Assembly (NCBI GenBank): GCA_028286825.1
Contig: JAQBQV010000002.1
Location: 2,157 to 66,156, forward strand
DNA: 64,000 bases
Direction: 5' to 3'
Source of the DNA: Parcubacteria group bacterium
GTDB taxonomy: Bacteria; Patescibacteriota; Minisyncoccia; Phycocordibacterales; Phycocordibacteraceae
A model generated the notes under the pieces. That model did no database searches and was not told the DNA's origin. It saw only the letters and a program-made list of their open reading frames with translations. Of the stretch, positions 1-45,822 are shown in pieces (position 1 is the first letter of the stretch; each line of letters starts with the position of its first letter). The position numbers and the translations under genes are program-made.

Positions 1-1
1 T

Positions 2-400
2 AAGCCAAGACTTGATCGAGCAAGGGAAATATACAACCAAGTAAAAGAAGAAGGTTTGGTACTTGATGGTGAAGATCTGTGGCGTTTAGGTATGCTCTAT
101 CAGCACAGTGCGGAGCCTGAGGATTATCTCACTGCTATGGAAATAGCGAACATGTCATCGGCTGCAGGAAGCGAGGCTGGAGCATGGCTAACTGCAGCGG
201 CCGAAGACCGGTATCTTCTCTCGGTTGGTAAAGATCAAAAGTGGGGGACTCAGTTTGCAAAAAATGATGAGGGACAGTGGTATCAGCAACCAATGTCGAG
301 TGATGAGGAGTCAGGTATTACTGACGACATGCGGGCGACAAAAGGCATTTCACCCCGAGCCGTACAGATGGAAGAATTCCTTAAGAGGGATGATGTATAG
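2..400 (+). CDS. hypothetical protein (5' end outside window)
   Basis: The frame is open from nt 2 to TAG 398-400. Track ORF 56..400 is the same frame from an internal TTG. I recognise no motif. Confidence 0.5.
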   Translation, partial: KPRLDRAREIYNQVKEEGLVLDGEDLWRLGMLYQHSAEPEDYLTAMEIANMSSAAGSEAGAWLTAAAEDRYLLSVGKDQKWGTQFAKNDEGQWYQQPMSSDEESGITDDMRATKGISPRAVQMEEFLKRDDV

Positions 401-487
401 GTTCCCACGTCGTCCCAGTGACCAATTTCACTTAGAACTGCAAGGAGTTAGTGAAATGGAAATACTCTTGTGGTGGCGGCCAGCTCG
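400..487 (+). repeat. intergenic motif, long form (left half + 55-nt hairpin insert + right half)
   Basis: Sequence is GGTTCCCACGTCGTCCCAG / tgaccaatttcact...cttgtggtg / GCGGCCAGCTCG. Positions 409-469 match 49573-49633 at 59 of 61 nt. Confidence 0.85.
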
Positions 488-496
488 TTAGATTCC

Positions 497-505
497 TGAT
501 ATACT
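497..505 (+). promoter_or_regulatory. extended -10 promoter element, leaderless-type
   Basis: TGaTATACT, with ATG 514 lying 8 nt downstream and no SD. Confidence 0.5.
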
Positions 506-513
506 CAAGCGCG

Positions 514-1161
514 ATGACAATTAAAGACGTCTACAAAAAATTCAACATTCCGCCAAACCTCGAGACGCATATGCTCACGGTCGCGCAGGTGGTGTGCGGC
601 ATCAAAGACCACTGGAAGGGAAGTTCCATTAATTGGAATTTTATTATTGGCGCCGCACTTCTTCATGACGTGGGTAATATAGTTAAGTTTAATTTTGATG
701 CGCACCCAGAGTTCTTAGGTAAAGAGGAGGTCAATATCGAGTACTGGAGAAAAGTAAAACAGGAGGTAATTACGAAATACGGATCGGATGACCATATGGC
801 TAGTGGAAATATGTTAAAAGAAATCAATGTTTCTGCTGAGCTGCACAATTTAATTCAAAACAAATCTTTTTCAAATGCAGTTGAGGTAGCAGAAGGGAAT
901 GACTGGTACTCAAAAATACTCCTTTATGCAGATATGCGTGTGATGCCTCATGGTATAGCAACGCTCGAAGAGCGGCTTTCGGACGTGCGGAATCGTATGC
1001 CGCAATACACATCGCGACCCGACTTTGAATCTTTACTCGATGCCGCTCGAGGTATTGAAGGAGAAATAGCCGGAAATTTGGATGCTCTTATTACCTCAAT
1101 CGAGTGGGGCAAGGTTAGTGATATGGACACAGAGCTGCTGAATCGGACGTTGTCACATTAG
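514..1161 (+). CDS. HD-domain metal-dependent phosphohydrolase
   Basis: Contains the LLHDVGN His-Asp motif. ATG 514 lies 8 nt after TATACT 500-505. The track start at 451 would read through the repeat element. Confidence 0.75.
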   Translation: MTIKDVYKKFNIPPNLETHMLTVAQVVCGIKDHWKGSSINWNFIIGAALLHDVGNIVKFNFDAHPEFLGKEEVNIEYWRKVKQEVITKYGSDDHMASGNMLKEINVSAELHNLIQNKSFSNAVEVAEGNDWYSKILLYADMRVMPHGIATLEERLSDVRNRMPQYTSRPDFESLLDAARGIEGEIAGNLDALITSIEWGKVSDMDTELLNRTLSH

Positions 1162-1168
1162 TGAAAAA

Positions 1169-1199
1169 GGTTCCGACGTCGTACCAAGCGGCGAGCTCG
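1169..1199 (+). repeat. intergenic motif, short form
   Basis: Sequence is GGTTCCGACGTCGTACCAAGCGGCGAGCTCG, about 27/31 identical to the consensus. Confidence 0.8.
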
Positions 1200-1242
1200 T
1201 GAATTAAGGGAAGTTTGATATGCTGAAAGGAACAATATCAAC

Positions 1243-1986
1243 ATGGAAGACATGGTTCAATACAAAGGAGATTTGGCCGATAAATATAGTTCACAAGATC
1301 GATTGGCCCATCCACAGAATATGGTTCCGTATTCAACTTGGCTAGAAGAGCTAGGAGATATTCAGAGTCTTGAAATTCTCGATCTGGCCTGTGGAAGCGG
1401 ATACGGCTCAAGAATGTTGGCTGAAAGAGGCGCTCGTGTCACTGGCGTTGATATTGCTCCAGAAATGATAGCGAAAGCTCAAGAGATTGAAGCGCTGGAC
1501 GCACTCGGTATTACATACATCGTTTCCGACGCAAAGAAGTTGGATCTACATAAGACATTCGACATTGTTGCTCCGTCGTTTTTATTTAATTACGCGAAAG
1601 ATAAACAAGAATTAATTGAATTGATCGCGACAGCCGCAATACATTTGAATACAGGAGGAAGAATGGTTGCCTTGAACGCACCACCGAATCCAATCATCCT
1701 TCGTTTACCCAATGCAAATTCATCCACGGAATGGCTGGGTGAACCAAACAAAGAAGGATCGCTCGTGAGGATGCATTTCTATGACCTTAAAGGAGATTGG
1801 CTCTGCGATATCGATTTTAACTACTGGTCAAAAGAGACATATGAGGAATGTTTTAATTTGGCAGGCTTCACAAATATCGAGTGGGTTCCTATGCGGATGA
1901 CTGAAGAGGGGAAGCGGTTATTGCCTAACTGGCAAGACATAGAGAAAAATATTTGCAGTATCGTCGTCAAAGGAATCAAAGCATAG
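1243..1986 (+). CDS. class I SAM-dependent methyltransferase
   Basis: ILDLACGSGYGS ... VTGVDIAPEMI matches the SAM-binding motif I and post-I acidic loop. Confidence 0.85.
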   Translation: MEDMVQYKGDLADKYSSQDRLAHPQNMVPYSTWLEELGDIQSLEILDLACGSGYGSRMLAERGARVTGVDIAPEMIAKAQEIEALDALGITYIVSDAKKLDLHKTFDIVAPSFLFNYAKDKQELIELIATAAIHLNTGGRMVALNAPPNPIILRLPNANSSTEWLGEPNKEGSLVRMHFYDLKGDWLCDIDFNYWSKETYEECFNLAGFTNIEWVPMRMTEEGKRLLPNWQDIEKNICSIVVKGIKA

Positions 1987-2042
1987 ATTCAATAGCGGGC
2001 TCAACAAGCCTAAGCTGCTGTCTCACGATCTCTTCTCAAAAA

Positions 2043-2072
2043 AATCCCATGTCGTACCAGACGGCCAGCTCA
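2043..2072 (+). repeat. intergenic motif, short form
   Basis: Sequence is AATCCCATGTCGTACCAGACGGCCAGCTCA. Confidence 0.8.
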
Positions 2073-2078
2073 TAGGGG

Positions 2079-2084
2079 TATAAT
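2079..2084 (+). promoter_or_regulatory. -10 box, leaderless-type
   Basis: TATAAT, with ATG 2091 lying 6 nt downstream and no SD. Confidence 0.5.
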
Positions 2085-2090
2085 AATGAC

Positions 2091-2423
2091 ATGTTTATCA
2101 AGGCTAGGAAAATACTCATAAATGCATTTCCAGTAGCATTAATGATTATTTTAATCCCAATCGTTTTAAATGATTTTCTTCTTGCGGCACTGTATCTTGT
2201 GATCGCGATCATCTCTTTAATGACGCGGCACGAGAAAAACGATTATCTCGCATATGTATTCGGTCTGGTTGTGATCACCATCTCTGAATATTTTTTTATC
2301 CAGACGGGAGTGGAAACATTTATGCGAAATAGTCTTTTTGGAATAATGCCAGTTTGGCTGCCCCTTTTATGGGCATATGCCTTTGTTGCCATAATGAGAT
2401 CGCTCAGAGTTTTAGATCAATAA
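2091..2423 (+). CDS. small integral membrane protein
   Basis: 110 aa with three hydrophobic segments. TATAAT 2079-2084 lies 6 nt upstream of the ATG. Confidence 0.6.
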   Translation: MFIKARKILINAFPVALMIILIPIVLNDFLLAALYLVIAIISLMTRHEKNDYLAYVFGLVVITISEYFFIQTGVETFMRNSLFGIMPVWLPLLWAYAFVAIMRSLRVLDQ

Positions 2424-2424
2424 A

Positions 2425-2452
2425 GGTTCCCACGTCGTACCAGACGGCCAGC
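2425..2452 (+). repeat. intergenic motif, short form
   Basis: GGTTCCCACGTCGTACCAGACGGCCAGC, an exact consensus match, 1 nt after the stop of 2091..2423. Confidence 0.9.
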
Positions 2453-2474
2453 AAAATAAGTAATGATTAGCTAC

Positions 2475-2588
2475 TTAAGCGGTTGGCCGAAACCAATCCG
2501 TGAACCAAGAGACGTATACAAGAATGCCGAGGAAGAAAATAACAATAGCTGATGCAATGAGGGCAATCCATTTAAATAGCTGTTTCAT
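2475..2588 (-). CDS. 37-aa single-pass membrane peptide (candidate)
   Basis: Below the track cutoff. Translation is MKQLFKWIALIASAIVIFFLGILVYVSWFTDWFRPTA. GGAGGT lies 16 nt upstream. It sits alone between two motif copies. Weakly supported. Confidence 0.35.
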   Translation of the reverse strand: MKQLFKWIALIASAIVIFFLGILVYVSWFTDWFRPTA

Positions 2589-2618
2589 TCAGGGATTATC
2601 GCATACCTCCGACACAGT

Positions 2619-2649
2619 GGTTCCCACGTCGTACCAGACGTCGAGCTCG
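2619..2649 (+). repeat. intergenic motif, short form
   Basis: Sequence is GGTTCCCACGTCGTACCAGACGTCGAGCTCG, 29/31 identical to the consensus. Confidence 0.9.
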
Positions 2650-2673
2650 AGATAACAATGGTAATTCCTTGTT

Positions 2674-3273
2674 ATGAACAGTCAGAATAAGATAGGACCG
2701 CAGGATTGGTATCATGGGCGAATGAAACAACCTATCAGGCGTAAAGGGTTCACACTCATTGAGTTGCTTGTTGTTATTGCGATTATTGGAATTCTATCAG
2801 CAGTAGTCGTTGCAGCAACTTCGTCATCTCGCATAAAAAGTCGAGATGCGGCACGCGTCTCATCAATTCGACAAATACAATATGCGCTTGCTCTGTACCA
2901 TAGTACAAACGGAGCCTATCCTCCCTGTCTTTACGTCAGTGCCTGCGGAGCTTCTTCACTTGAGTCCGCATCTCCCTCGGTCATGAAATCTGTTCCAAAA
3001 GATCCCTTGAGTGGCCTGAACTATTCCTATGCTGCAGTTGGGTCAGGATCATCTTGTACCTCATATCATCTCGGTGCATCTCTTGAAGATAAGACAAATC
3101 GAGCAATGCAGGCAGGGGCCGACGCACCAGCTAGTAGTGTTTGTACAGGTAGTGCTGTGGATTTCTCAGGTCTTTCCTATGCAGCTGCGGGGCAGTTATG
3201 TAATCTTATTGCTGGAACGCCACAACCCACAGCAGCTATAAATGGGGAGACATGCTACGACGTTAAGCCCTAG
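2674..3273 (+). CDS. type IV pilin / pseudopilin-like protein (prepilin N-terminal cleavage/methylation domain)
   Basis: KG|FTLIELLVVIAIIGIL is the class III signal peptide motif. An alternative start at 2722 (MKQPIRRKG) is possible. Confidence 0.85.
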   Translation: MNSQNKIGPQDWYHGRMKQPIRRKGFTLIELLVVIAIIGILSAVVVAATSSSRIKSRDAARVSSIRQIQYALALYHSTNGAYPPCLYVSACGASSLESASPSVMKSVPKDPLSGLNYSYAAVGSGSSCTSYHLGASLEDKTNRAMQAGADAPASSVCTGSAVDFSGLSYAAAGQLCNLIAGTPQPTAAINGETCYDVKP

Positions 3274-3300
3274 ATTGCTTATTGTTACGGCTGTAAAAAA

Positions 3301-3330
3301 GTTCCCACGTCGTACCAGACGGCCAGCTCG
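3301..3330 (+). repeat. intergenic motif, short form
   Basis: GTTCCCACGTCGTACCAGACGGCCAGCTCG, an exact consensus match. Confidence 0.9.
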
Positions 3331-3335
3331 TACTA

Positions 3336-3341
3336 TATACT
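3336..3341 (+). promoter_or_regulatory. -10 box, leaderless-type
   Basis: TATACT, with ATG 3348 lying 6 nt downstream. Confidence 0.5.
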
Positions 3342-3347
3342 TAGCTC

Positions 3348-4277
3348 ATGTCTGGAAGTTCTCGACAGGAGATACGCGTTGGAGTGCTTATGTATACCTA
3401 TGATCGCGTTGATGATGCGCGAGTCAACATGGAAATAATTCGAAATGTCTGGTCGAAAGTTCCCTTGCTCAAAGATGTAGTCGTTGTACACGCGTATAAC
3501 GGTAACCAAGATTGGTGGCCAGAGGCGTATTTAGAAAATACTCTTTGTCGCACAGACAACCCAGGACATTTTAGCGGTGCAGAGCTTCTCCTCAATACAG
3601 GCATTCAAGTTTTCAAGGAAAAATATCCAGACATCACGCATGTTGTTGTTCTCGCTTCTGATACGTGGTGTGTTAAGCCTGAATATATACAAAATGTCAT
3701 TCAAGAGATGGTATCTAAAGAACTCTATCTTGCAACAAACGCGTGGGGTAGTAAGAAAGATACAAATATGTTCAAAATTGGTATGGCGCTCGATTTATTT
3801 ATTCTAGACATGGATTTTGTAAAGAAGTCTGAATTTTTTCCTTTAAACTACAAGAGCTTTGGTGACAAATACGGAGAACTTCTTATGTATCGAGGCACTT
3901 TCGCGTTTCTTGAGCGTGTGTTTGCCCTTAGGTTTAAGCAGGCACTCATGAGAATTGCTCCTATTCCAAGTGAAAATCTTATTGAGAAGGTTGCCTTAGC
4001 TCACCTCTATCATATGCGTGAACGTGAACCAGTACATTATGAGCAAAAAGCTTTTTTCAAAAAACCTATAGGGAAGAGGCACATGTATTGGCCAAAAATT
4101 GGGTTATTGACCCATCATGATCCGGTCGAGAAACGGCGCGCACTGAAGGAATATCGTCTCTCGCTAGGCGAGCACGGAAGACGTTTCCTTGAGGCAAGGG
4201 ATTTCAAGTATTTTAATCAAGGGAAAAATAAAACCACTTTTGTGAAAGGAGCCAAAACTATCGACTACAACGACTAA
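3348..4277 (+). CDS. hypothetical protein
   Basis: 309-aa ORF. TATACT 3336-3341 lies 6 nt upstream of the ATG. No motif I can name with confidence. Confidence 0.6.
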   Translation: MSGSSRQEIRVGVLMYTYDRVDDARVNMEIIRNVWSKVPLLKDVVVVHAYNGNQDWWPEAYLENTLCRTDNPGHFSGAELLLNTGIQVFKEKYPDITHVVVLASDTWCVKPEYIQNVIQEMVSKELYLATNAWGSKKDTNMFKIGMALDLFILDMDFVKKSEFFPLNYKSFGDKYGELLMYRGTFAFLERVFALRFKQALMRIAPIPSENLIEKVALAHLYHMREREPVHYEQKAFFKKPIGKRHMYWPKIGLLTHHDPVEKRRALKEYRLSLGEHGRRFLEARDFKYFNQGKNKTTFVKGAKTIDYND

Positions 4278-4282
4278 ATAAA

Positions 4283-4313
4283 GCTTCCCACGTCGTACCA
4301 GACGGCCAGCCCG
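4283..4313 (+). repeat. intergenic motif, short form
   Basis: Sequence is GCTTCCCACGTCGTACCAGACGGCCAGCCCG. Confidence 0.9.
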
Positions 4314-4334
4314 TGATACGATTTATATAACGTC

Positions 4335-4565
4335 ATGCCAAAGAAGAGACAGACATCAAAGACCTACAAGCATTACCACAAAGATGGGAGTTTGTGGGCA
4401 GAAGGGAAACTGGTAGAAGGGCAAATGGAAGGCTTTTGGAAGTGGTTTCGAAAAGATGGCACCAAAATGCGTTCAGGCTATTTCAAATCAGGAAAGCAGA
4501 GCGGCAAATGGACGACCTATGACAAAACAGGCGGAGTCGTTAAAGTTACAGACTTTGGTAAATAA
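4335..4565 (+). CDS. MORN-repeat (YwqK-like) protein
   Basis: Contains repeated G-x-W-x-x-[FY]-x-x-x-G-x units (EGFWKWFRKDGTKMRSGYFKSGKQSGKWTTYDKTG). Confidence 0.75.
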   Translation: MPKKRQTSKTYKHYHKDGSLWAEGKLVEGQMEGFWKWFRKDGTKMRSGYFKSGKQSGKWTTYDKTGGVVKVTDFGK

Positions 4566-4620
4566 GTTCTAATTTTGTACTGCAACTATTCCAGCATGGA
4601 AGCTGTTATATACTGCACAC

Positions 4621-4875
4621 ATGTTTAGCTCAAGGCAGACGGCGCTCTTAATCTTGGCTATCACTGCTGTCGTGTGTTCCCGGGTAATGTTTTCGCTCTT
4701 CAATGATCCTGAGGGTCCCAATCTACTGGTGGTCATGGGGATGGCAGCAATCCTCTATTTCCTATCTTTGGCGGCATATATATACAATCCCTTAGAAACC
4801 GGCCTCAAGAATCTTGTACTAACTATTTTCATCCAGGTACTACTAGCTACCGGTCTTTATTTCTGGTTGAGTTAA
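4621..4875 (+). CDS. small integral membrane protein
   Basis: 84 aa with three hydrophobic segments. TATACT 4609-4614 lies 6 nt upstream of the ATG. Confidence 0.6.
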   Translation: MFSSRQTALLILAITAVVCSRVMFSLFNDPEGPNLLVVMGMAAILYFLSLAAYIYNPLETGLKNLVLTIFIQVLLATGLYFWLS

Positions 4876-4876
4876 A

Positions 4877-4906
4877 GTTTCAACTTCGTACCACAATGCC
4901 AGCTCC
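4877..4906 (+). repeat. intergenic motif, degenerate short form
   Basis: Sequence is GTTTCAACTTCGTACCACAATGCCAGCTCC, 1 nt after the stop of 4621..4875. Confidence 0.6.
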
Positions 4907-5023
4907 TTAAGCCAAGGTAAGCATTTACTCATAATTTCCAGCTGTCAAGAAAGTGCCAGGTCTAAGATAACTGCTTATCCCCCTATTTACGATTGTATGA
5001 TCTGGGTCGCGTATACTAACCCC

Positions 5024-5533
5024 ATGAACACAACCAATAAGAGGATAATAATCGCAGTTATCGTAATACTACTCGTAGCTGGTGGTCTATGGTTTATGAC
5101 GACTCGGTCTTCAAACACGAGCGACACCCTTGGCACCCCAGATAATTCAGGGCAGGCAGATCAGGTAACAAAGAACGGTCAAAGCGTTACGACGAAAACA
5201 ACCACCACGACCGCTACCTCGTCGCCTGCGGATGTAACCGGGCAAATCGAAATCGGCATGAATCAAACAGGAGGAGCGTTCGGGGTAACCATCACTCCGG
5301 ATCAGGTGGTAGAAGATAGCCGCTGTCCGACGGACGTGAAGTGTATCCAGGCCGGCACGGTTCGAGTACATGTACTCTTCAATGGAGTAACGAGCCAGAC
5401 TATCGCCATCGGCGATCGAATAACGCTTGGAGGAGAGGCAGTCACTCTTCTACAGGTAAAGCCAGCTAAAGTCTCAACGGTCACCCTTAAAAATTCTGAT
5501 TATCGCTTCGTCTTCAAGATTGAGCAGCCCTAA
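5024..5533 (+). CDS. membrane-anchored/secreted hypothetical protein
   Basis: Has an N-terminal TM segment and a Thr-rich linker. TATACT 5012-5017 lies 6 nt upstream of ATG 5024, so the track start 4997 is less likely. Confidence 0.6.
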   Translation: MNTTNKRIIIAVIVILLVAGGLWFMTTRSSNTSDTLGTPDNSGQADQVTKNGQSVTTKTTTTTATSSPADVTGQIEIGMNQTGGAFGVTITPDQVVEDSRCPTDVKCIQAGTVRVHVLFNGVTSQTIAIGDRITLGGEAVTLLQVKPAKVSTVTLKNSDYRFVFKIEQP

Positions 5534-5550
5534 TCACTTTTGCTGTTGTG

Positions 5551-5650
5551 ATTACTCACGTCGTACCGTCGATTTAGAAGACAAGAGGCAGGGTCATTGT
5601 GTTTTCTAAAGTACTCCTATGACATGACTTTGAGGTAGTGGCGGCCAGCC
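5551..5650 (+). repeat. intergenic motif, split form with unrelated insert
   Basis: The left half is ATTACTCACGTCGTACCGTCGA (5551-5572) and the right half is GTAGTGGCGGCCAGCC (5635-5650). The 62-nt insert can form a TTTAGAAgACAA / TTGTgtTTTCTAAA hairpin. Confidence 0.55.
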
Positions 5651-5724
5651 AAGTGCGTAACTGAGGTGATGGCCGGCTACAGACAAGAAACAAAAGCTGA
5701 GGTGATACAATCTAGATACGTAGT

Positions 5725-8283
5725 ATGCTAGCCTTGCGTAAGTCGTGCTTATTTTTAACCGTTATCTTTGTGTGCGGTGTCTATTTTGCATTGCCTCCTG
5801 TATTGTCTGCGGCAGAGCGAGGAGCGCAATCAGACAGTATTGGTACAGGAGCAGAATATGCGCCGTCTGAAGTTCTGGTCAGGTATAAAAAGTCAGGTGT
5901 CAATTTGGAAACATTTGCGGGTAGAAACGTCGCGTCAGATATAAGCAAGCGCAAATTCCTTGCAATAGAGGAGCATTTCCAGAAAGAGAACATCTCTCTT
6001 TTGAAAATTAAGGACAGAAGGTCAGTTGAGGAGGTAGTCGCAGAGCTCAAGAACGACCCAAACGTAGAGTACGCAGAGCCAAATTATACTCGGAAGATCT
6101 CAGTGATTGGTTCTAACGATACTCACGCAGCTCTTCTTTGGGCTCTCGACAACTCAGGTCAAACGATACCCGGAAGTTTCGGCACGATCGCGGGTACTGT
6201 CGATGCGGACATTGATGCCCCCGAAGCATGGGCGATAAGCGAAGGAGGGGATGCAACTGTAGTTGTCGCCGTTATTGATATTGGTGTCTTGTACTCGCAT
6301 CCCGATCTACTCGCAAATATGTGGGATGGAACGAACTGTAAGAGTGACACAGGTGCTGCTCTAGGCGAGTGCAGTCATGGGTACGACTATCAGGACAACG
6401 ACAAAGACCCGCTGCCGTCGGGAGGAGCTTCTCACGGCACGCATGTGTCGGGAGGTATTGGAGCCGTGAAGGATAACGGGGCAGGCATTACGGGCGTTGC
6501 TCCCCATGTGAAAGTGATGGCTATGCGATTTGCGCTCAATGTTTCCTCTGAGATAAAGGCGATCGACTTTGCGATTCAAAATGGCGCGAAAATAATCAAT
6601 GCTAGCTTTGGTGGACCAGGATTTTCACAGCTCGAATACGATGCGATAGAGCGCTTCAAAGAAGCCGGAGGCATTTTCGTCGCTGCAGCAGGGAATTGTG
6701 GGGATGCGGCCACCTTTGCTGCCAATGGGTGTTCAAGTCAGAATCAAGTCCTTTACCCGGCAGGTTACGATTTGTCGAATATTATCTCTGTAGCTGCCAC
6801 TGCTCAGGACGATACGCTTGCAACGTTCTCAAATCACGATCAAACATGGGTTGATGTCGGCGCACCGGGTACGAACATCTTAAGTACTATCACCGGAAAT
6901 GCCTACGCTTACTCAAGCGGCACTTCGATGGCTGCGCCATACACGGCTGGGCTTGCAGCGTTACTATGGGGATACAACAACGATCTTTCATTTGCGGAGG
7001 TAAAAAGTCTCATCCTTGATAATGGAGATATTGAAGATTCTCTTGTCGGTGCCACAGTCTCAGGGAAAAGGATCAATGCTCAGAAATCGCTTTTTGGTGC
7101 AACTATTTTATATGCAGACTCGCTTCACGATGGAGCTGTAGAAGGAGTGGGTCCCGACCTGTACGCAGTCGGGTCTAGGGCGATTCTTCAAACAGCGATA
7201 GATGTCGCGACAGAGATCAAAAATAACAGCGAATCCTCTGACGCCGACATAACCGCAGCCGTCGTTGACTTACGTGCGGCTCTCACGACATTTCTTGCTG
7301 CGCGCAATCCGGAATTTTCAAATCTAACAGCTCTCACTCTTGCCATCAGTAGCGCGCAAGCCGTTCTGGCTTTGGCAGAAGAAGGGACAGTGCCCGGGCA
7401 CTACGCTCTCGGCTCGATAGCAACTTTGAATACTGCACTGGATTTAGCGCTCCTCATTACTGATGGAGACTCGCAAGCAACAGTAGATGCATCCGTCGTA
7501 GCACTAAATGCTGCTGTCCAGGCGTTTCAAAATGGCAGAGTTTCCCCAGTCATTACTACTTCGCTTGACACTGGCGGTTCAATAAACCCATCTGGGTCAG
7601 TCGTTGTCTCTTATGGGAGCGATCAGATGTTTACAATAACTGCTGACAGCGGGTACGCGATCAAAGAGGTTTTAATTGATGGCATATCCGTTGGCACAAA
7701 TGGCACGCAACTCTTTAGTAACGTAGTCGCTCACCATGTGATAACGGCTACTTTCGATCCGGTTACTTTTAGCAGTGTTTCCGTTGGTGGAGGTGGAGGT
7801 GGAGGAGGAGGTGGTGGTGGAGGCGGCGGTATTTCTTCGTCAGCGCCGCCAGCTCCGGTAGTAGCTCCGATTGTGAAAGCTGTCCCAATCACCCAAACTA
7901 AACCGAGTGACTGCAAGCCAGGCTTCTTGTTCAGTCCATCAACGGGACTTTCGTGTGGACCCCTGCCAGACTCATCAGATTTGCCGCGCTTCTTACTCGC
8001 ACAGGCCAGCGCTCCTCTAGAGACCGCCGCTGCGCCATTCCTATTCAACAGAAATCTCACGCTAGGAACTGTCGGAGCAGATGTGAGGCAGCTACAAATC
8101 TACCTTAATGCGCGTGGCTTCATTGTCTCAGCAGCAGGTGTTGGGTCAGTTGGGAATGAAAGTACTTATTTTGGAGCGTTAACCAAGAAGGCACTCGCCG
8201 AGTATCAAAGCGCAACTGGTATTAGCCCGGCCGCTGGCTACTTGGGACCCGTTACGAGAGCATATGTTAATACCCACCAGTAG
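5725..8283 (+). CDS. secreted subtilisin-like (S8) serine protease with poly-Gly linker and C-terminal peptidoglycan-binding domain
   Basis: Signal peptide present. Catalytic triad contexts are VAVIDIGV (Asp), HGTHVSG (His) and SGTSMAAP (Ser). The C-terminus (LTLGTVGADVRQLQIYLN...YFGALTKKALAEYQ) resembles PG_binding_1. Confidence 0.9.
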   Translation: MLALRKSCLFLTVIFVCGVYFALPPVLSAAERGAQSDSIGTGAEYAPSEVLVRYKKSGVNLETFAGRNVASDISKRKFLAIEEHFQKENISLLKIKDRRSVEEVVAELKNDPNVEYAEPNYTRKISVIGSNDTHAALLWALDNSGQTIPGSFGTIAGTVDADIDAPEAWAISEGGDATVVVAVIDIGVLYSHPDLLANMWDGTNCKSDTGAALGECSHGYDYQDNDKDPLPSGGASHGTHVSGGIGAVKDNGAGITGVAPHVKVMAMRFALNVSSEIKAIDFAIQNGAKIINASFGGPGFSQLEYDAIERFKEAGGIFVAAAGNCGDAATFAANGCSSQNQVLYPAGYDLSNIISVAATAQDDTLATFSNHDQTWVDVGAPGTNILSTITGNAYAYSSGTSMAAPYTAGLAALLWGYNNDLSFAEVKSLILDNGDIEDSLVGATVSGKRINAQKSLFGATILYADSLHDGAVEGVGPDLYAVGSRAILQTAIDVATEIKNNSESSDADITAAVVDLRAALTTFLAARNPEFSNLTALTLAISSAQAVLALAEEGTVPGHYALGSIATLNTALDLALLITDGDSQATVDASVVALNAAVQAFQNGRVSPVITTSLDTGGSINPSGSVVVSYGSDQMFTITADSGYAIKEVLIDGISVGTNGTQLFSNVVAHHVITATFDPVTFSSVSVGGGGGGGGGGGGGGGISSSAPPAPVVAPIVKAVPITQTKPSDCKPGFLFSPSTGLSCGPLPDSSDLPRFLLAQASAPLETAAAPFLFNRNLTLGTVGADVRQLQIYLNARGFIVSAAGVGSVGNESTYFGALTKKALAEYQSATGISPAAGYLGPVTRAYVNTHQ
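7786..7830 (+). repeat. GGN trinucleotide run encoding a 15-residue poly-Gly linker
   Basis: There are 15 consecutive GGT/GGA/GGC codons inside 5725..8283. Confidence 0.95.
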
Positions 8284-8618: not shown

Positions 8619-8689
8619 GGTTCCGTATTCGTGCCGGTGACCTGACTGCAATGAGTTAGCGAAATGGCAATACTCTTGTGTCGAAGCTG
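8619..8689 (+). repeat. intergenic motif, degenerate long form
   Basis: GGTTCCGTATTCGTGCCGGTGACC...GAGTTAGCGAAATGGCAATACTCTTGTG aligns with the 400-487 element, with an internal deletion. Confidence 0.6.
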
Positions 8690-8749: not shown

Positions 8750-9196
8750 TTAGCCTTGCGCGGTTTGTTTTGGGTCAAAGTCGACCATCCATTCAATGCC
8801 AAATTTGTCTCTAAACATTCCAAAGTATGTTCCCCAAGGACTGTCTCCAATAGGCATTTCAACGGTACCGCCCTCTGAAAGTCCGTTAAATAAGGTGTCT
8901 GCTTCTTCGCGACTGTCTGCGCTAATTGCTATCTTAGATCGGTTTTCGTTTTCACTTACTTGGCCCATGCTGTCTGGAATGTCATTGGCCATCAGTGTGT
9001 TTTGACCAATAGGCAATGCGATATGCATTATCTTATTTGCGTCGTTCTCAGCCACAGGAAATCCTGGACTTGAGAGGTCTTTGAAACGAATAATTTTTGC
9101 AAACTCTCCGCCGAAAACCGATTTATAAAACGTAAATGCTTCTTCAGCATTTCCATTAAAGTTAATGTGAGGGTTGATATGTGTCATATGGCTCAT
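8750..9196 (-). CDS. VOC (glyoxalase-fold) family protein, PhnB-like
   Basis: HINFNGNAEEAFTFYKSVFGG ... FGIEWMV matches the family. The start was chosen at MSHMTH; the track start 9256 is an N-terminal extension. Confidence 0.7.
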   Translation of the reverse strand: MSHMTHINPHINFNGNAEEAFTFYKSVFGGEFAKIIRFKDLSSPGFPVAENDANKIMHIALPIGQNTLMANDIPDSMGQVSENENRSKIAISADSREEADTLFNGLSEGGTVEMPIGDSPWGTYFGMFRDKFGIEWMVDFDPKQTAQG

Positions 9197-9298
9197 TATA
9201 TCAAACGCTAGGTACATACAGAGCAGCGGTGGCAACGGCGAACTGAATCCCGCCACAGCGGGTTTCCGTTATGAGAAATGAGATCGAAACGGGTGATC

Positions 9299-9775
9299 TT
9301 AACCGCGACGCGCTGCGTCAATAGCGTCCACATCAATTTTTTTCATTGTCATCATTGCTTCAAACGCACGTTTTGCTTCAGCGCCACCTGCTGCCATAGC
9401 ATCAGTTAGCGTGCGTGGCGTGATCTGCCAGGATATTCCCCAACGATCCGTACACCAACCGCATTGACTTTCTTTACCGCCATTCTCAACAATCGCATTC
9501 CAATACCGATCCGTTTCCTCTTGATCATCTGTTGCGATCTGAAATGAAAATGCTTGCGTGCGCTCGAATGCCGGACCGCCGTTAACGCCAACACAAGGAA
9601 TTCCACTGACAATAAACTCCACAGTTAGCACATCCCCCTCCTTACCATCTGGATAATCGCTGGGCGCATTATGCACAGCAGTAACCTTACTGTCGGGGAA
9701 AGTTGCGGCGTAAAAGCTGGCTGCGTCCTCAGCGCCTGATTCGTACATAAGGCAAACGGTATTTTTTGGTGTCAT
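9299..9775 (-). CDS. VOC family protein (PhnB / 3-demethylubiquinone-9 methyltransferase-like domain)
   Basis: Contains FYAATFPDS ... ETDRYWNAI ... QCGWCTDRWGISWQI. It is a paralog of 35386..35877. Confidence 0.75.
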   Translation of the reverse strand: MTPKNTVCLMYESGAEDAASFYAATFPDSKVTAVHNAPSDYPDGKEGDVLTVEFIVSGIPCVGVNGGPAFERTQAFSFQIATDDQEETDRYWNAIVENGGKESQCGWCTDRWGISWQITPRTLTDAMAAGGAEAKRAFEAMMTMKKIDVDAIDAARRG

Positions 9776-9972
9776 AGTTGTAAGTGATTGAATTGTTAGT
9801 ATATCTAATATTTGAATGAAGGATCTTGCGTCTAAGTTTTTTACGTAAAAGGTTGGTAGCTAGCACACTCTAGCCATGCTTTTGTCGTCTACTCAAGTAA
9901 TGGATTTGAAGTAAGGTATCGACTGCACACAGTCACGAAATAAACACATAACCTCTGGTATACTCAAAATAT

Positions 9973-10308
9973 ATGAAAAATTTCACTGTTATATATATGG
10001 CGCCGGCCGCAGCAATGGAAGAATGGATGCAAAAACCTGAAGCGGAGCGTAAGGAGGCGGAAACTAAAATGAAGACGGGGTGGGACGCATGGATGGCCGC
10101 GCACACCGATACGGTCCTCAATACCATTGCCCTCGGAAAGACTAATCGAGTGAGCGCGTCAGGTGTTGAAGCAGTTAAAAACGACATGATGCTGTCTTCG
10201 TATGTGCAAGGAGAAACGCTTGAAGCGGTTGCGGAGGTATTTAAGGATCATCCGCACTTCGGTATCCCAGGGGCCACCATTGAAGTGATGGAGACGCGTC
10301 CAATGTAG
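9973..10308 (+). CDS. hypothetical protein
   Basis: 111-aa ORF with TATACT 9957-9962 upstream. No recognised motif. Confidence 0.55.
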   Translation: MKNFTVIYMAPAAAMEEWMQKPEAERKEAETKMKTGWDAWMAAHTDTVLNTIALGKTNRVSASGVEAVKNDMMLSSYVQGETLEAVAEVFKDHPHFGIPGATIEVMETRPM

Positions 10309-10345
10309 GGCTCTGACGATCCTAGCGTAGTAGAAACATGGACAG

Positions 10346-10377
10346 AAAATCCCCCGTCTCTTAAAGAGGCTAGCTCG
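10346..10377 (+). repeat. intergenic motif, degenerate short form
   Basis: AAAATCCCCCGTCTCTTAAAGAGGCTAGCTCG has the same CGTC-N13-AGCTCG spacing as the consensus. TAGAAT follows 5 nt later. Confidence 0.5.
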
Positions 10378-10394
10378 TGGGGTAGAATAGGTGT

Positions 10395-10973
10395 ATGAAA
10401 AAAATTGTCTTAGGGATACTGATCACTCTTGCTGTTTTGATCGTGGCCTTTTACACAGTTAACGCGTATATCTACCATGAAAAGCAGGCGACTGCAGTGG
10501 CCAATTATAGAGATGGCGAATACCGCATTGAGGGATCGTCGGTAACCCTCAAGGGCGGTGTTTCTATTGTTGAAGCAGCACCTGGCTCTGCCTCGAAAGT
10601 AACTACTCGTTATTTTGGCAATGATTATATGGTTGATCTGGACGGGGACGGGCGCGAGGACCACGTCTTCTTACTCACACAAGAAACAGGCGGCAATGGA
10701 GTTTTTTATTATGTCGTCGCAGCCCTTAACACTAAGCGAGGATACATTGGTTCTGATGGATATTTTCTTGGCGATAGGATTGCTCCTCAAACGGTGGGAT
10801 CGAGCCAAAATCCCCGACACCAGAATGTCATTGTTGTGAACTATGCAGACCGTGCTGTGGGCGAACCCGTGACCGCTAAACCTTCGGTTGGGGAAAGTGT
10901 GTATCTTAAACTGGATCCGACGAGCATGCAGTGGGGAATTGTTGAGCCAAATTTTGAAGGAGAATCAAATTAG
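10395..10973 (+). CDS. membrane-anchored hypothetical protein
   Basis: N-terminal TM segment. TAGAAT 10383-10388 lies 6 nt upstream of the ATG. Confidence 0.6.
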   Translation: MKKIVLGILITLAVLIVAFYTVNAYIYHEKQATAVANYRDGEYRIEGSSVTLKGGVSIVEAAPGSASKVTTRYFGNDYMVDLDGDGREDHVFLLTQETGGNGVFYYVVAALNTKRGYIGSDGYFLGDRIAPQTVGSSQNPRHQNVIVVNYADRAVGEPVTAKPSVGESVYLKLDPTSMQWGIVEPNFEGESN

Positions 10974-11056
10974 GTGTTCAGGAAGGTTCCCAAGTTTATA
11001 TCACCCATCAATCCTGTGGTGTGTCCATGCGGTAGTGATGTCAGCTCATTGGAGAA

Positions 11057-11473
11057 TCATCGCGGATGATAACTCCTCCAAAGAGTGCGCCATGGTTGAT
11101 AAAGTAAAAAGACTATTACCCCTACGAGCGCAGAATTCGCACCAAGAAGAAAGAAGTATGCAAACCAACAGCACTCTTTCGCATAAAAATAGTAAGGGAT
11201 CTTTGTATGACAGGCGACCAGATTTGTATCGGGTGCTCCAGTTGCACGTGCAGCCTCGGCTTCTCGCATATACTCTGCAATTGTTGCATGCATAAAGGTG
11301 AAAAAAACTGCCGCTACGCCGAAATATTCAATTAACCCCTTATGAGTCGCAAGGGCAACCGTGACAAGTACAATAAGTACCAGCGCACCCTCAACGTGAT
11401 ATGTTTTACAGTTAAATAATTTTTTGATCTTTTCCACCACAACTACAGGGATATAGGAGATTTTATTTTTCAC
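11057..11473 (-). CDS. integral membrane protein
   Basis: 138 aa with several hydrophobic segments. Confidence 0.55.
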   Translation of the reverse strand: MKNKISYIPVVVVEKIKKLFNCKTYHVEGALVLIVLVTVALATHKGLIEYFGVAAVFFTFMHATIAEYMREAEAARATGAPDTNLVACHTKIPYYFYAKECCWFAYFFLLGANSALVGVIVFLLYQPWRTLWRSYHPR

Positions 11474-11522
11474 GATAAAGAGAGTATATCAAAGGACTTA
11501 ACGTCCTTTTGGCCTCTAGAAA

Positions 11523-11623
11523 GGTTCATGTCGTACCAAATCTACACCCATGTTTCAAGGCTCTCAGGAAACGGGTGAGCATTCTAAGGTGCCTAAATAA
11601 CTTATACCCCGGCTCAGCTTGCG
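11523..11623 (+). repeat. intergenic motif, split form upstream of lexA-like gene
   Basis: The left half is GGTTCATGTCGTACCAAATC (11523-11542) and the right-half-like sequence is CCGGCTCAGCTTGCG (11609-11623). The insert is unrelated. Confidence 0.45.
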
Positions 11624-11624
11624 T

Positions 11625-11648
11625 TTAGAGCAATTGCTCTAATATACT
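11625..11648 (+). promoter_or_regulatory. 18-bp perfect palindrome (candidate LexA operator) abutting -10 box of lexA-like gene
   Basis: TTAGAGCAATTGCTCTAA (11625-11642) is followed directly by TATACT (11643-11648), and the ATG is 6 nt later. Confidence 0.6.
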
Positions 11649-11654
11649 GTGGGT

Positions 11655-12218
11655 ATGACTGACGCCAAAGACAAAATCGCCAACTTCTACCGCAAGCGCC
11701 GCCGGATGCCATCGCATACCGAGGTCGCGAAGCTTCTCGGCTACAAATCTCGAGGTGCGACGGCCTATGCGATCCAGAAGCTCGTAGACGCAGGAGTTGT
11801 GTCTAAGGATAAGACCGGCAGACTTCTGCCTGGTGAGCTGCAATATGGGTTAAAAATGCTGGGCTTGGTCGAAGCTGGTTTCCCATCAGCAGCTGAAGAG
11901 GAACTCCTCGACGTCATGAACTTTGACGAATACCTCACTCCCAACAAGGAGTCGAGCTATATCTTGAAAGTGAAAGGTGACTCAATGATCGAAGCGGGTA
12001 TCCAAGAAGGGGACATGGTTATCGTCGAGCGCAGGCAAAGCTATAAGCCCGGACAAATTGTGATTGCTTCTGTTGATGGAGAGTTCACTATTAAATATCT
12101 GCGCAAAGGGCAAGGAGGTTACTTTCTTGAACCAGCTAACTCAAAATACAAACCTATTTACCCAGAACAGACGTTGAACATCGAGGCGGTAGTTACGGCA
12201 GTAGTACGCAAATACTGA
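11655..12218 (+). CDS. lexA: LexA-like repressor / S24 self-cleaving peptidase
   Basis: N-terminal winged-HTH region, an Ala-Gly site (VEAGFP), a Ser in VKGDSM and a Lys in FTIKYL. ATG 11655 lies 6 nt after TATACT 11643-11648. Confidence 0.85.
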   Translation: MTDAKDKIANFYRKRRRMPSHTEVAKLLGYKSRGATAYAIQKLVDAGVVSKDKTGRLLPGELQYGLKMLGLVEAGFPSAAEEELLDVMNFDEYLTPNKESSYILKVKGDSMIEAGIQEGDMVIVERRQSYKPGQIVIASVDGEFTIKYLRKGQGGYFLEPANSKYKPIYPEQTLNIEAVVTAVVRKY

Positions 12219-12219
12219 T

Positions 12220-13527
12220 ATGGCGTGGGGTTCCATACGTTCCTACCCGCGCGCCATCCTCCACGTAGACGGAGATTCTTTCTTTGTATCTTGTGAGGTA
12301 GCAAAAAATCCCTCCTTGAAAGGAAAGCCTGTAATCACTGGGAAGGAGCGGGGTATCGTATCCGCAGCGTCATACGAGGCGAAAGCGAGGGGCGTGAAGC
12401 GAGGTATGCGGTTATTTGAGGTGAGGCAGATTTGTCCTAACGCGGTGATACTCCCCTCAGACTACGAGACGTATAGTCTCTTCTCTGAGCGCATGTACAG
12501 AATCGTGCGCAGGTATACGCCCGCGGTAGAGGAGTACAGTATAGACGAGTGCTTCGCTGACCTTACTGGTCTGCGCGGAAAACTGCACTTGAGCTATGAG
12601 CAAATCGCACAAAGGATAAAACACGATCTTGATACTGAGCTCGGGATGACATTTTCAATCGGCGTATCAGCAACAAAGACGCTTGCAAAGATCGGCTCTA
12701 AGTGGAAGAAGCCATCAGGCCTCACTATGATTCCGTTACGAGATAAGCCAGTCTTCTTGGAGAAGACTCCTGTCGGAGCCGTGTGGGGGGTTGGTCCGAA
12801 CACAGCAGCGTTGCTTAATACATGGGGAGTACGGACTGCACTCGACTTTGCGAAAAAGCCTGAGGCTTGGGTGAAAGAGAGGGTGTCAAAACCATACTTT
12901 GAGACCTGGCAGGAGCTAAATGGAGTTGTTTCAAATGAGCTCGATGTAGACGGAAGGAAGGGATACAAATCGATTAGCAAAACAAAGACTTTCACTCCGC
13001 CATCTACGAGCCCAACATTTGTATATGCTCAGCTCTCAAAAAACATTGAGAATGCCTGCATCAAGGCTCGTCGGTGGGATTTGGTTAGTCCGGTTATTTA
13101 CTTTTATATTTTGACGCAAGACTTTCGTTACCACTCCTATGAGATTAAACTTCCATATCCAACAAACGTTCCGCAAGACATTCTGAAAGAAGTGTCAAAA
13201 TATTTCGCAACATTGTTCAAAAAAAATACGGAGTATCGAGCCACAGGAATTATTCTTGCCAAGCTCTCTGACGGTAAAACAGTCCAGCTCGACCTCTTTG
13301 GCTCAGTCCAAAAGTCCGAAGCCATTAAACGGGTGTTTGAGAGCGTCGATACGATGTCTGAAAAGTTTGGGAAGCATACTATTTTTCTTGGGTCCAGCTT
13401 TGAAGCCATGACCCATTCAGCACATCTCGGGGATCGGGGCGATGTCACCAATCGTGTCGTCAGCTTGTTTAAGGGCGAGACAAAGCGGAGACGTCTAGGA
13501 ATCCCTATGCTTGGCGAGGTCAGATAG
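12220..13527 (+). CDS. Y-family DNA polymerase (UmuC/DinB-like)
   Basis: Contains ILHVDGDSFFVSCE and YSIDECFADLTG catalytic motifs. There is a 1-nt gap after the lexA-like gene. Confidence 0.9.
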   Translation: MAWGSIRSYPRAILHVDGDSFFVSCEVAKNPSLKGKPVITGKERGIVSAASYEAKARGVKRGMRLFEVRQICPNAVILPSDYETYSLFSERMYRIVRRYTPAVEEYSIDECFADLTGLRGKLHLSYEQIAQRIKHDLDTELGMTFSIGVSATKTLAKIGSKWKKPSGLTMIPLRDKPVFLEKTPVGAVWGVGPNTAALLNTWGVRTALDFAKKPEAWVKERVSKPYFETWQELNGVVSNELDVDGRKGYKSISKTKTFTPPSTSPTFVYAQLSKNIENACIKARRWDLVSPVIYFYILTQDFRYHSYEIKLPYPTNVPQDILKEVSKYFATLFKKNTEYRATGIILAKLSDGKTVQLDLFGSVQKSEAIKRVFESVDTMSEKFGKHTIFLGSSFEAMTHSAHLGDRGDVTNRVVSLFKGETKRRRLGIPMLGEVR

Positions 13528-15365: not shown

Positions 15366-15390
15366 GTTTCCCACGTCGTACTAGTGGCCC
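15365..15390 (+). repeat. intergenic motif, short form
   Basis: GGTTTCCCACGTCGTACTAGTGGCCC overlaps the last base of the stop codon of 15012..15365. Confidence 0.75.
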
Positions 15391-15408: not shown

Positions 15409-15654
15409 ATGAAAAGTGTTGCTTCAGAAACACCTCACAAAATACCGACGGATTTACGAAAGGCCTTGTCTACGGCTCCTAAGGCGCAAGCAACGTGGGA
15501 AGATATCACGCCGCTGGCCCGCAATGAGTGGATTTGCTGGGTTACATCTGGCAAAAAAGCGGAAACGAGGAATATTCGTATAGAAAAGGCACTCTCGAAA
15601 CTGAAGGGCGGAATGCGTAGGCCCTGCTGTTGGGTTGGCTGCCCTCACCGCTAA
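15409..15654 (+). CDS. YdeI/OmpD-associated family protein
   Basis: Contains WEDITPLARNEWICWVTSGKKAETRNIRIEKAL. The extended -10 TGtTATAGT 15394-15402 ends 6 nt upstream of the ATG. Confidence 0.75.
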   Translation: MKSVASETPHKIPTDLRKALSTAPKAQATWEDITPLARNEWICWVTSGKKAETRNIRIEKALSKLKGGMRRPCCWVGCPHR

Positions 15655-43247: not shown

Positions 43248-43287
43248 CCTCCTCGAGTTTTTTCTTGATTCTTGTTAGAATAAGGGG

Positions 43288-44367: not shown

Positions 44368-44459
44368 TTAATAATAATTGAGTGGCAAAAAACTTAAGTG
44401 ATTTAGTTAGGTTTTTCAAAATTAGATCAGTGGATAACCCACTACATTTTTACGCTTAC

Positions 44460-44515
44460 ATGATTTAGGTTTGGACACCTCAAACCACTCTGGGTATGCT
44501 TTATACATGGCCCTC
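44460..44515 (+). repeat. imperfect direct repeat, copy 1
   Basis: ATGATTTaggTTTGGacaCCTCAAACCACTCtGG...TTATAcatGGCCC shares an exact 12-mer, CTCAAACCACTC, with 45272-45333. Confidence 0.4.
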
Positions 44516-44620
44516 AATTCCTGTATACTTTTATCAAGTCTCCCGAAGGTGAGCCGGGTTTTCGGTTCTAACATCGGGACACCACCACCGCCAGATGACC
44601 AAGTTAGAACTTATAAAAAT

Positions 44621-45130: not shown

Positions 45131-45132
45131 AT

Positions 45133-45249: not shown

Positions 45250-45271
45250 TCTACCGCACTTTGGCCTTTAT

Positions 45272-45333: not shown

Positions 45334-45371
45334 TAGAACTTTTGATGATGACAAACGAAGATTGGGCTCAT

Positions 45372-45756: not shown

Positions 45757-45822
45757 TCTGGCTAGTAATTATCGGTTCGACCAGACCGATACATAAATGC
45801 TACTCCTGCTTACAAAAAACAC

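Follow-up and report, generated by a model that had tools for sequence, protein, structure and literature searches.

A conserved intergenic motif bounds co-oriented gene cassettes in Parcubacteria and may be a site of cassette exchange

The window considered here is a 64-kb stretch of DNA (64,000 nucleotides, contig JAQBQV010000002.1) from a Parcubacteria group bacterium. At 400-5650 it contains nine copies of a motif, GGTTCCCACGTCGTACCAGACGGCCAGC(TCG), each on the + strand and each intergenic. The motif stands out clearly from shuffled sequence and recurs in co-oriented arrays in many genomes; the units that it delimits form a mosaic between relatives, the sequence variation within the motif shows a break in linkage, and the arrays are associated with tRNA-Gln genes. 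We regard it as an even proposition that the motif serves as both boundary and recombination site in a mobile gene-cassette array, attC-like in role but not part of an integron.

Motif copies in the window

Pattern searches against dinucleotide shuffles place the array well outside chance expectation. The 31-mer with up to three mismatches matches at four positions (2425, 2619, 3300 and 4283) versus 0.00 expected. The 23-nt core CCACGTCGTACCAGACGGCCAGC is found five times, including 2047, with exact matches at 2430, 3305 and 4288 and none in the shuffles. The central 10-mer ACGTCGTACC with at most one mismatch yields 19 matches versus 2.75 expected, nine of them at 400-5650 on the + strand. 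An initial annotation, made from the letters of the window, had described a co-oriented, intergenic array of nine copies here, and both number and strand hold, with none expected from shuffles; the copies at 400 and 5551, however, are not simple but split by hairpin inserts of 54 and ~72 nt. Its two exact copies do not survive, in that the full 31-mer is never matched exactly (30/31 at best, at 3300) and what is exact are the three 23-nt cores.

The first copy (400-488) is a long form with a 5′ half GGTTCCCACGTCGTCCCAG at 400-418/420, the 54-nt hairpin insert and a 3′ half GGCGGCCAGCTCG at 475-488. Short copies follow at 1169-1199 (27/31, GGTTCCGACGTCGTACCAAGCGGCGAGCTCG), 2042-2072 (26/31, then TATAAT), 2425-2455 (core exact, tail AAA), 2619-2649 (29/31), 3300-3330 (30/31, core exact) and 4283-4313 (29/31, core exact). 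A degenerate copy lies at 4876-4906 (23/31), and a split or long-form copy at 5551-5651, with its 5′ half ending at 5567, a hairpin-forming insert of ~72 nt and a 3′ half GGCGGCCAGCC at 5640-5651.

Motif copies are not limited to 400-5650, the stretch first described. A profile built from all copies (nhmmer), combined with inspection of the intergenic gaps, recovered at least six degenerate or long-form copies beyond it, up to 50.4 kb, all intergenic and on the + strand, which brings the window total to ~15. They comprise a decayed long form at 8619-8689 (GGTTCCGTATTCGTGCCGGTGACC...AATACTCTTGTG...), a decayed split copy at 10985-11047 recognised by sequence inspection (GGTTCCCAAG ... GTAGTGATGTCAGCTCA), a 5′-half remnant at 11523-11542 (GGTTCATGTCGTACCAAATC), a decayed copy immediately 3′ of a stop codon at 15366-15389 (GTTTCCCACGTCGTACTAGTGGCC), a long form at 49563-49651 with halves GTCGCCCATGTCGTCCCAG (5′) and GACGGGCAGC (3′) and an insert 96% identical to that of the copy at 400, and a degenerate short copy at 50380-50409 (GATTCCCACGCCGTACCCACGGCCAACGCG) between an intrinsic terminator and a -10 box. 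Within these 64 kb, the part of the genome that was scanned, no copy lies on the - strand or within any gene. Profile scanning of the window and related loci gave one orientation per locus throughout.

The 5′ 6 kb of the window have a G+C content of 43-45.5%, compared with ~46-53% in most of the window, and the stretch is indeed AT-richer, as first noted. The cumulative GC skew climbs near-monotonically over 1-64000, and the + strand carries most genes and every motif copy; the array therefore runs in the direction of the presumed leading strand.

Cassette mosaicism and the position of the junction

Comparison of motif flanks by BLAST uncovered copy pairs from different genomes in which 250 nt of homology run up to the motif on one side, with none on the other. 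Homologous cassettes in different genomes share 76-87% nucleotide identity and have different neighbours, and the homology ends at the motif. Of the 94 ends of alignments located in arrays or close to them, 32 fall inside the motif versus 5.4 +/- 2.2 for random placement, a comparison partially confounded by gene boundaries.

Individual cassettes illustrate the pattern. One of 574 nt (cassette Y) is 84-87% identical between loci L058/L073 and L072/L076, and another of ~270 nt (cassette X) is 79-82% identical between L050 and L072/L076; in both cases the neighbours differ on both sides. Single cassettes are likewise common to L019/L053 and to L004/L065 (82-86% identity) and to L048/L061, and a two-gene block is common to L063 and L076 (76% identity). 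The latter two loci also share a tRNA-Gln head and a distal YkuD-C39 block, with different cassettes in between. In the window, the gene at 9973-10305 is 81% identical to a motif-flanked cassette of L056, and that at 15409-15651, next after the 15366 copy, has 78% nucleotide identity to one in L059. Units of the same type therefore make up the window array in its decayed part too.

Variation within the motif itself helps to locate the junction. Copy pairs that share only the upstream gene agree 25/30 at the variable 5′ positions and 6/15 in the tail, whereas pairs that share only the downstream gene agree 18/30 at the variable 5′ positions and 13/15 in the tail. In 71 unique copies, linkage holds between the 5′ subtype and positions 19-20 (permutation p = 0.003), and neither of the two is linked to the tail (p = 0.44 and 0.84). 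Judged by these patterns, the motif appears chimeric, with positions 1-20 going with the upstream gene and the 3′ tail with the downstream gene. The unit of inheritance would therefore be tail, leader, gene and motif positions 1-20 or beyond. The break probably falls in or just after the invariant CGGCCAGC, a layout that would resemble an integron cassette with its 3′ attC.

Cassette Y also occurs on its own. Its family numbers 173 homologues, none with a non-CPR name (CPR, Candidate Phyla Radiation), and the protein is CPR-specific, 170-175 aa long and without a Pfam family except for one PF21820 match. Homologues without the motif are present in L074, L078, L079, L082 and L084, in settings such as after gyrA (L074), after tRNA-Ala and in motif-less tRNA-Gln arrays; expression of the gene therefore does not require the motif. 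Cassette Y (L084:7922-8522, L085-L087, L075:9671-10519) often follows a tRNA gene immediately, at a distance of 8 nt from tRNA-Ala or 259 nt from tRNA-Gln.

Sequence anatomy and folding of the site

In 71 unique ungapped copies, 20 of the 28 core positions reach an invariance of at least 95%. Invariance is at least 92% at positions 2-5, 8, 11-14, 16-18 and 21-28, and variation is found at positions 1, 6, 7, 9, 10, 15, 19, 20 and 29-31. Two subtypes, CCCACGTCGTACC and CYAAYATCGTCCC, stand side by side within single arrays. Mutual information is limited to adjacent positions, and there is no covariation across the CGTC/GACG dyad. Near-invariant positions without covariation across the helix would fit sequence-specific recognition.

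The motif alone folds weakly into a 4-bp hairpin (-6.7 to -6.9 kcal/mol, z about -1.1 to -1.4), in agreement with the small dyad first noted and no better than shuffled sequence. A structured RNA was considered and rejected: folding z scores range from +0.1 to -1.4, covariation is confined to neighbouring positions, and an alifold alignment of long forms (n = 3) contains one compensatory pair. Rfam 15 returned no relevant match for motif or window at the gathering threshold or at E <= 1. A coding role as a read-through peptide was discarded too, the offset from stop codon to motif varying in frame. By inspection, neither strand of the motif contains RYYYAAC or GTTRRRY cores.

Long forms are of two kinds. 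The 54-nt insert is found at three sites in the window (400, 8619 and 49563) and again, 90% identical, in L019, which belongs to another genome; these constitute a conserved subfamily. Other long forms (5551 in the window, L004 and L061) carry unrelated hairpin inserts, mostly at motif positions 17-20. In long forms CGTCGTCC of the motif pairs with GTGGTGGCG, lengthening the same helix.

Expression signals around the motif

Spacing statistics were collected for 69 copies. Of these, 57 begin within -2 to +4 nt of a stop triplet, in keeping with the early impression that it starts close after stop codons. A -10-like hexamer (at least 5/6 positions) follows 2-69 nt 3′ of the motif in 38/69, some of these boxes being clear (TATAAT, TATACT, TGnTATACT), and in the other 31/69 no hexamer matches at 5/6 positions within 70 nt. 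The range of 2-69 nt rules out a fixed -35 or UP (upstream promoter) element, a conclusion that the initial annotation had drawn from fewer copies.

No hairpin-plus-T-run terminator occurs between genes at 1-6000, again as first described, and such terminators are present elsewhere in the window (for example at 8700, 19210 and 50345). Likewise, no intrinsic terminators of forward genes were found in the arrays. A terminator scan predicted no site at any motif copy; an intrinsic terminator has a G+C-rich stem of at least 5 bp and a T run, whereas the stem of the motif measures 4 bp and the T run is missing. At 50331-50452 a canonical terminator lies 5′ of the motif copy, and because it already precedes the motif, the motif itself is not the terminator there.

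Distribution among genomes

An exact 22-mer scan of 185,579 species genomes gave 46 loci. Thirty-nine of these were set aside as coincidental: they come from high-G+C genomes, for the most part of Variovorax and other Proteobacteria, and the match falls within coding sequence (LAVWYDV, opposite strand). The remaining seven are metagenome-assembled genomes (MAGs) of Patescibacteria with 39-55% G+C, in which the motif stands between a stop codon and a -10 box. A metagenome scan added 25 contigs with the motif, all of CPR type and like the Patescibacteria ones. The 28-nt core is present in contigs assigned to Parcubacteria, Kaiserbacteria, Paceibacterota and Minisyncoccia, plus one labelled Saccharibacteria, and the closest relatives of one window protein are from Kaiserbacteria and Paceibacterota. 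Viral, phage and plasmid records (IMG/VR, INPHARED and PLSDB) hold no motif, and a phage or plasmid origin was discarded accordingly.

Overall, ~100 copies were collected across ~35 loci, often in arrays of 4-10, and every locus is strictly of one orientation. The largest arrays are those of L059 (10 copies in 5 kb), L053 (9-10) and L048 (8-9), followed by L073/L058 (6-7), L019 (5) and L076/L072 (5). The repeat breaks k=31 assemblies, and arrays are therefore under-represented in public MAGs. L047 (equal to window 440-3327, Logan k=31 assembly), the one other public contig found for this organism, begins within the split motif at 400-488 and breaks off within the copy at 3300; contigs of 1-2 kb likewise hold many of the cassette-Y homologues. 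A body of ~8 million full texts, searched also with the sequence itself, yielded no prior description of the element; together with the Rfam, phage, plasmid and viral searches this agrees with the initial annotation, which knew of no such element.

Array heads and the search for a recombinase

A co-oriented tRNA-Gln gene lies 0.3-4 kb upstream of the first motif copy in L026, L053, L059, L062/L044, L063/L049, L072/L076/L077 and L075. In these heads dnaX or a small GIY-YIG gene is often 5′ of tRNA-Gln, and the cassettes follow. Other arrays are not near tRNA-Gln, namely L073 (none within 9 kb upstream) and L004, and the 64-kb window contains no tRNA gene. The small GIY-YIG nuclease-family gene adjoins the head tRNA-Gln in at least four loci, at L026:460-708, L078:8415-8666, L082:8893-9159 and in L062 (oriented 1544-2287); it may reflect plain synteny or be a candidate enzyme. 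Directly after the intact tRNA-Gln(ttg) of L026, at 716-930, is a second tRNA-Gln-like copy interrupted by G+C-rich palindromic inserts, cctgcctgcgcaggcagg and gcctgcccgcgcaggcgg.

The recombinase search covered the window and the related loci. A phmmer search with an XerD query, a weak test, found no tyrosine recombinase among the ORFs (open reading frames) of 90 aa or more that the window and ~45 loci contain. Recombinases are absent from the 25 most frequent of 65 Pfam families in the window and from the 25 most frequent of 61 families in array ORFs. Neither the Pfam calls for the 10-kb flanks of L073, L075, L076 and L078 nor the interval from tRNA-Gln to pyrG in L076 include an integrase or recombinase. 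The enzyme, if there is any, is unlinked to the arrays.

The only recombinase met, by phmmer with XerD and serine-recombinase queries, was a serine recombinase (Resolvase and Recombinase domains) of an inovirus-like island in L056 and L062/L044, which was dismissed as the array enzyme since it adjoins single motif copies, not arrays. In L056 the island (8800-13330) adjoins a single copy and encodes the replication initiator Phage_CRI of filamentous phages, as well as a Dcm methylase and an HNH protein. In L062 (2400-4700; also in L044) it lies between tRNA-Gln and a single copy, with a helix-turn-helix protein in L062. The integrated element is possibly an inovirus-like CPR prophage.

Cassette contents

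Units between motif copies measure 65-1400 nt and typically hold one gene. The families among 58 array ORFs include NUDIX (four), HAD (three), AAA_18 (three), HIT (two), methyltransferases, DJ-1, SDR and GrpB, together with YbjQ, YkuD, sortase, pyrophosphatase, APH and RibD_C. Cassette contents are mostly unrelated small accessory enzymes, and also kinases and a pilin. Sixteen of 82 ORFs in arrays run opposite to the motif strand, although some may be spurious; others look clearly real, and by sequence inspection two resemble sortase-like and AAA_33 kinase-like proteins. The polarity of the motif follows the array, not the gene. At L059 (oriented) 3984-4080 two copies are 65 nt apart around a 34-nt sequence (CTAGACAAyTTCTCAAyTGTTTGCAAAAT), which is also found 5′ of a motif copy in L056 and L069; this unit may represent an 'empty' cassette, or else a promoter that a reversed gene has left behind.

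A cassette-exchange model and its alternatives

If the motif is a recombination site, each cassette would consist of a short 5′ leader (the 3-nt motif tail and a spacer, usually with a -10 box), usually one accessory gene, and a 3′ block GGTTCCCACGTCGTACCAGA-CGGCCAGC. Cassettes would be gained, lost and exchanged by recombination, with the crossover between position 20 and the tail, either within the invariant CGGCCAGC or immediately 3′ of it, and the outcome would be co-oriented arrays whose gene content differs between related Parcubacteria. The array would be anchored just downstream of a co-oriented tRNA-Gln in several genomes, copies further from the head would decay, and the variable hairpin at positions 17-20 of some sites would recall the variable central part of attC. 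We infer that a sequence-specific enzyme acting in trans would catalyse the exchange, rather than RecA using 28-31 bp of identity, and that the motif would have no other primary function. The initial annotation had left open whether the motif is a recombination site, a protein-dependent terminator, insulator or operator, or an RNA-processing site; the comparative data favour recombination and weaken the other two.

It is important to point out what speaks against cassette exchange. The cassettes own -10 boxes, unlike integron cassettes, and no tyrosine or serine recombinase was found in the 64-kb window or adjoining any visible array. L078 and L082 are tRNA-Gln-headed arrays of small co-oriented accessory genes without the motif, and the tRNA-Gln-headed array of L075 has decayed copies only. 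Because the motif fills the intergenic gap, a break 'at the motif' would follow from any change of gene order; the pairs that are informative form a small sample (~10) and localise the crossover only to positions 20-29. All comparative data come from short-read metagenome assemblies, and the contigs compared contain neither a circular cassette junction nor a near-identical strain pair differing by one cassette.

In the main alternative explanation the motif is a cis-acting protein site, either an operator or silencer of a large regulon of accessory genes or a protein-dependent terminator or insulator separating genes with promoters of their own, and the shuffling arises incidentally when 28-31-bp repeats undergo homologous recombination, perhaps following natural transformation. 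The position of the motif between stop codon and next -10 box in nearly every gap would suit such a site, as would the conservation of sequence rather than structure, the lack of intrinsic terminators in forward array genes when they occur elsewhere in the window, and the failure to find a recombinase nearby; competence genes such as dprA and type IV pilins are present in these genomes. We nevertheless consider it unlikely. The -10 box lies anywhere from 2 to more than 60 nt away and 31/69 copies lack a match, motif polarity is independent of gene polarity, a terminator precedes the motif at 50331-50452, and homologous genes do without the motif in other genomes. Moreover, a near-invariant, asymmetric stretch of 28 nt is unusually long for an operator, linkage breaks at a defined place within it, and it is confined to arrays instead of being spread over the genome. 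The co-orientation of the array with its head tRNA-Gln might alternatively indicate RNA punctuation, with a long transcript from the tRNA-Gln side being cut by an endonuclease at a small hairpin for 3′-end processing, like CRISPR (clustered regularly interspaced short palindromic repeats) repeats or tRNA punctuation in mitochondria. The CGTC/GACG hairpin of 4 bp is re-created one register on in subtype 2 (A10, C15), long forms lengthen the helix with several G-U pairs that work on the top strand only, and 28-31 nt is a typical size for processed repeats. Yet folding is not better than in shuffles (z +0.1 to -1.4), the 71 copies show no cross-helix covariation, position 10 changes to A without a change at 21, and Rfam has no match. 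Many cassettes carry a -10 box themselves, genes on the reverse strand would run antisense to the long transcript, and processing does not by itself explain cassette mosaicism, all of which renders this account improbable.

Short conserved extragenic repeats directly after stop codons, some with hairpin inserts, also bring to mind selfish or uptake-related elements that accumulate in intergenic DNA, such as repetitive extragenic palindromes (REP), bacterial interspersed mosaic elements (BIME), miniature inverted-repeat transposable elements (MITE) or a DNA-uptake signal, the more so as CPR bacteria are thought to depend on DNA uptake. The copies, however, are strictly co-oriented and clustered, with none on the - strand or in genes in 64 kb; the motif is not palindromic; uptake signals lie genome-wide on both strands; and no gene of the RAYT (REP-associated tyrosine transposase) or IS200 type was seen, albeit without a search aimed at them. 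We hold such an origin to be very improbable. Least credence of all is due to the idea that the copies are displaced tRNA-Gln 3′ ends left by the serial integration of small elements, a tandem accretion of islands. Arrays do begin downstream of a co-oriented tRNA-Gln at the loci named above, and the motif ends (GGTTC... ...GGCCAGC-TCG) are loosely like the tRNA end GGTTCGAATCC...GGCAGC-tcg, with a few copies reading GTTCGAAT. The motif, though, exceeds the tRNA end by 5 nt and is wholly different in the middle; no integrase was found in or beside the arrays; and L073 and L004 are away from tRNA-Gln. We rejected this derivation because the motif is near-identical in genomes that differ in the acceptor and T stems of tRNA-Gln (TCCCGCAGC, TCGGGCAGC and TCTGGCAGC).

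Comparison with known systems

Cassette arrays are best known from integrons, including sedentary chromosomal ones such as that with the Vibrio cholerae repeats (VCR) and integrase-less clusters of attC sites (CALIN). The present arrays are like them in having co-oriented, mostly single-ORF cassettes of unrelated accessory functions, a repeat at the 3′ end of the cassette, occasional reversed ORFs, content that varies between relatives with boundaries inside the repeat, a crossover that appears to lie near the 3′ end of the site, variation in the length of a central hairpin and decay of distal copies. They differ in that no intI, attI or cassette promoter (Pc) was found, and in their Parcubacteria and CPR hosts and tRNA-Gln anchor. 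attC sites are imperfect palindromes of 57-141 bp, conserved in structure and with RYYYAAC/GTTRRRY cores, whereas the motif has 28-31 nt, is conserved in sequence and contains a 4-bp dyad without those cores. Integron cassettes are generally promoterless; here a -10-like hexamer follows 38/69 copies.

In Acinetobacter plasmids, pdif modules are genes flanked by XerC/XerD sites of ~28 bp whose recombinase is encoded elsewhere in the genome. These also are short conserved sites bounding small gene modules in varied contexts, but the dif-type sites of such modules (pdif, IMEX) have an 11-6-11 layout with arms of partial dyad symmetry, an AT-rich centre and alternating orientation, while the motif copies are direct repeats in which only CGTC/GACG is symmetric and the outer arms are unrelated. 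The rAID-1 arrays of Bacteroidales start with a tyrosine recombinase gene and contain immunity or toxin genes. They are alike in being integron-like arrays of small, unrelated, independently expressed genes split by conserved intergenic repeats, and differ from the present ones, for which no adjacent recombinase was found and which hold mostly housekeeping-type small enzymes.

Other repeats are more distant. REP/BIME elements and DNA uptake sequences (DUS) or uptake signal sequences (USS) are also short, conserved and extragenic, just after genes, but they are dispersed in both orientations and often palindromic or paired, in contrast to the clustered, unidirectional and asymmetric motif; DUS/USS occur at ~1 copy per kb genome-wide on both strands and also inside genes, which the motif does not in 64 kb. 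CRISPR arrays share direct repeats of 28-31 nt with a small hairpin in a unidirectional array, but have spacers of 25-50 nt instead of gene-holding units of 65-1400 nt, and here the repeats vary within an array; no cas family is among the most frequent families in the Pfam listings of the window and the array ORFs. The att repeats of tRNA islands consist of a tRNA 3′ end and accompany an island integrase, whereas the motif differs from the 3′ end of tRNA-Gln and no integrase was found. Going by these features, the array would belong to the known class of cassette arrays, in a form that seems undescribed, and the likelihood of its machinery being new is substantial.

CPR (Patescibacteria) account for a large share of bacterial diversity, with genomes of ~1 Mb and few recognised routes of gene gain. 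We tentatively suggest, at somewhat less than even confidence, that Parcubacteria and related CPR possess an independently evolved platform for capturing and exchanging cassettes, comprising a sequence-conserved site of ~30 bp in place of attC, an optional hairpin insert, self-promoted single-gene cassettes, a usual tRNA-Gln anchor and an unlinked putative enzyme, which might be a recombinase or else a nuclease of site-specific action that promotes repair with DNA acquired by uptake. Such a platform, if real, would explain the turnover of accessory enzymes in CPR (NUDIX, HAD and HIT hydrolases, kinases, pilins and cell-wall enzymes) and would be a second, independent solution to the problem solved by integrons. 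The short, asymmetric and near-invariant site makes the hypothesis directly testable, and a recombinase, if found, could become a tool.

Genes of the window array

The + strand genes between the copies at 400-5650 are diverse. The window start cuts a cassette ORF whose 3′ part occupies 2-400 and has no Pfam match. After it come an HD-domain protein with a weak Pfam match (514-1161), an S-adenosylmethionine-dependent methyltransferase (1243-1986), a small DUF2878-like membrane protein below the Pfam cut-off (2091-2423), a type IV pilin-like protein with an N_methyl motif (2674-3273), a 309-aa protein without family match (3348-4277), a 76-aa protein with a weak MORN-like match (4335-4565), an 84-aa hydrophobic protein (4621-4875) and a 169-aa protein with an N-terminal hydrophobic segment (5024-5533). 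On the - strand, a 37-aa ORF at 2475-2588, uncertain as a gene, is the sole content of the 163-nt unit between two copies.

Away from the array, a second stretch of low G+C content (41-43%) extends over 42000-46000. Reported within the window, at unmapped positions, are also a C5 DNA methylase, a Z1 domain and Mrr_cat, and the stretch at 42000-46000 may be a restriction or defence island.

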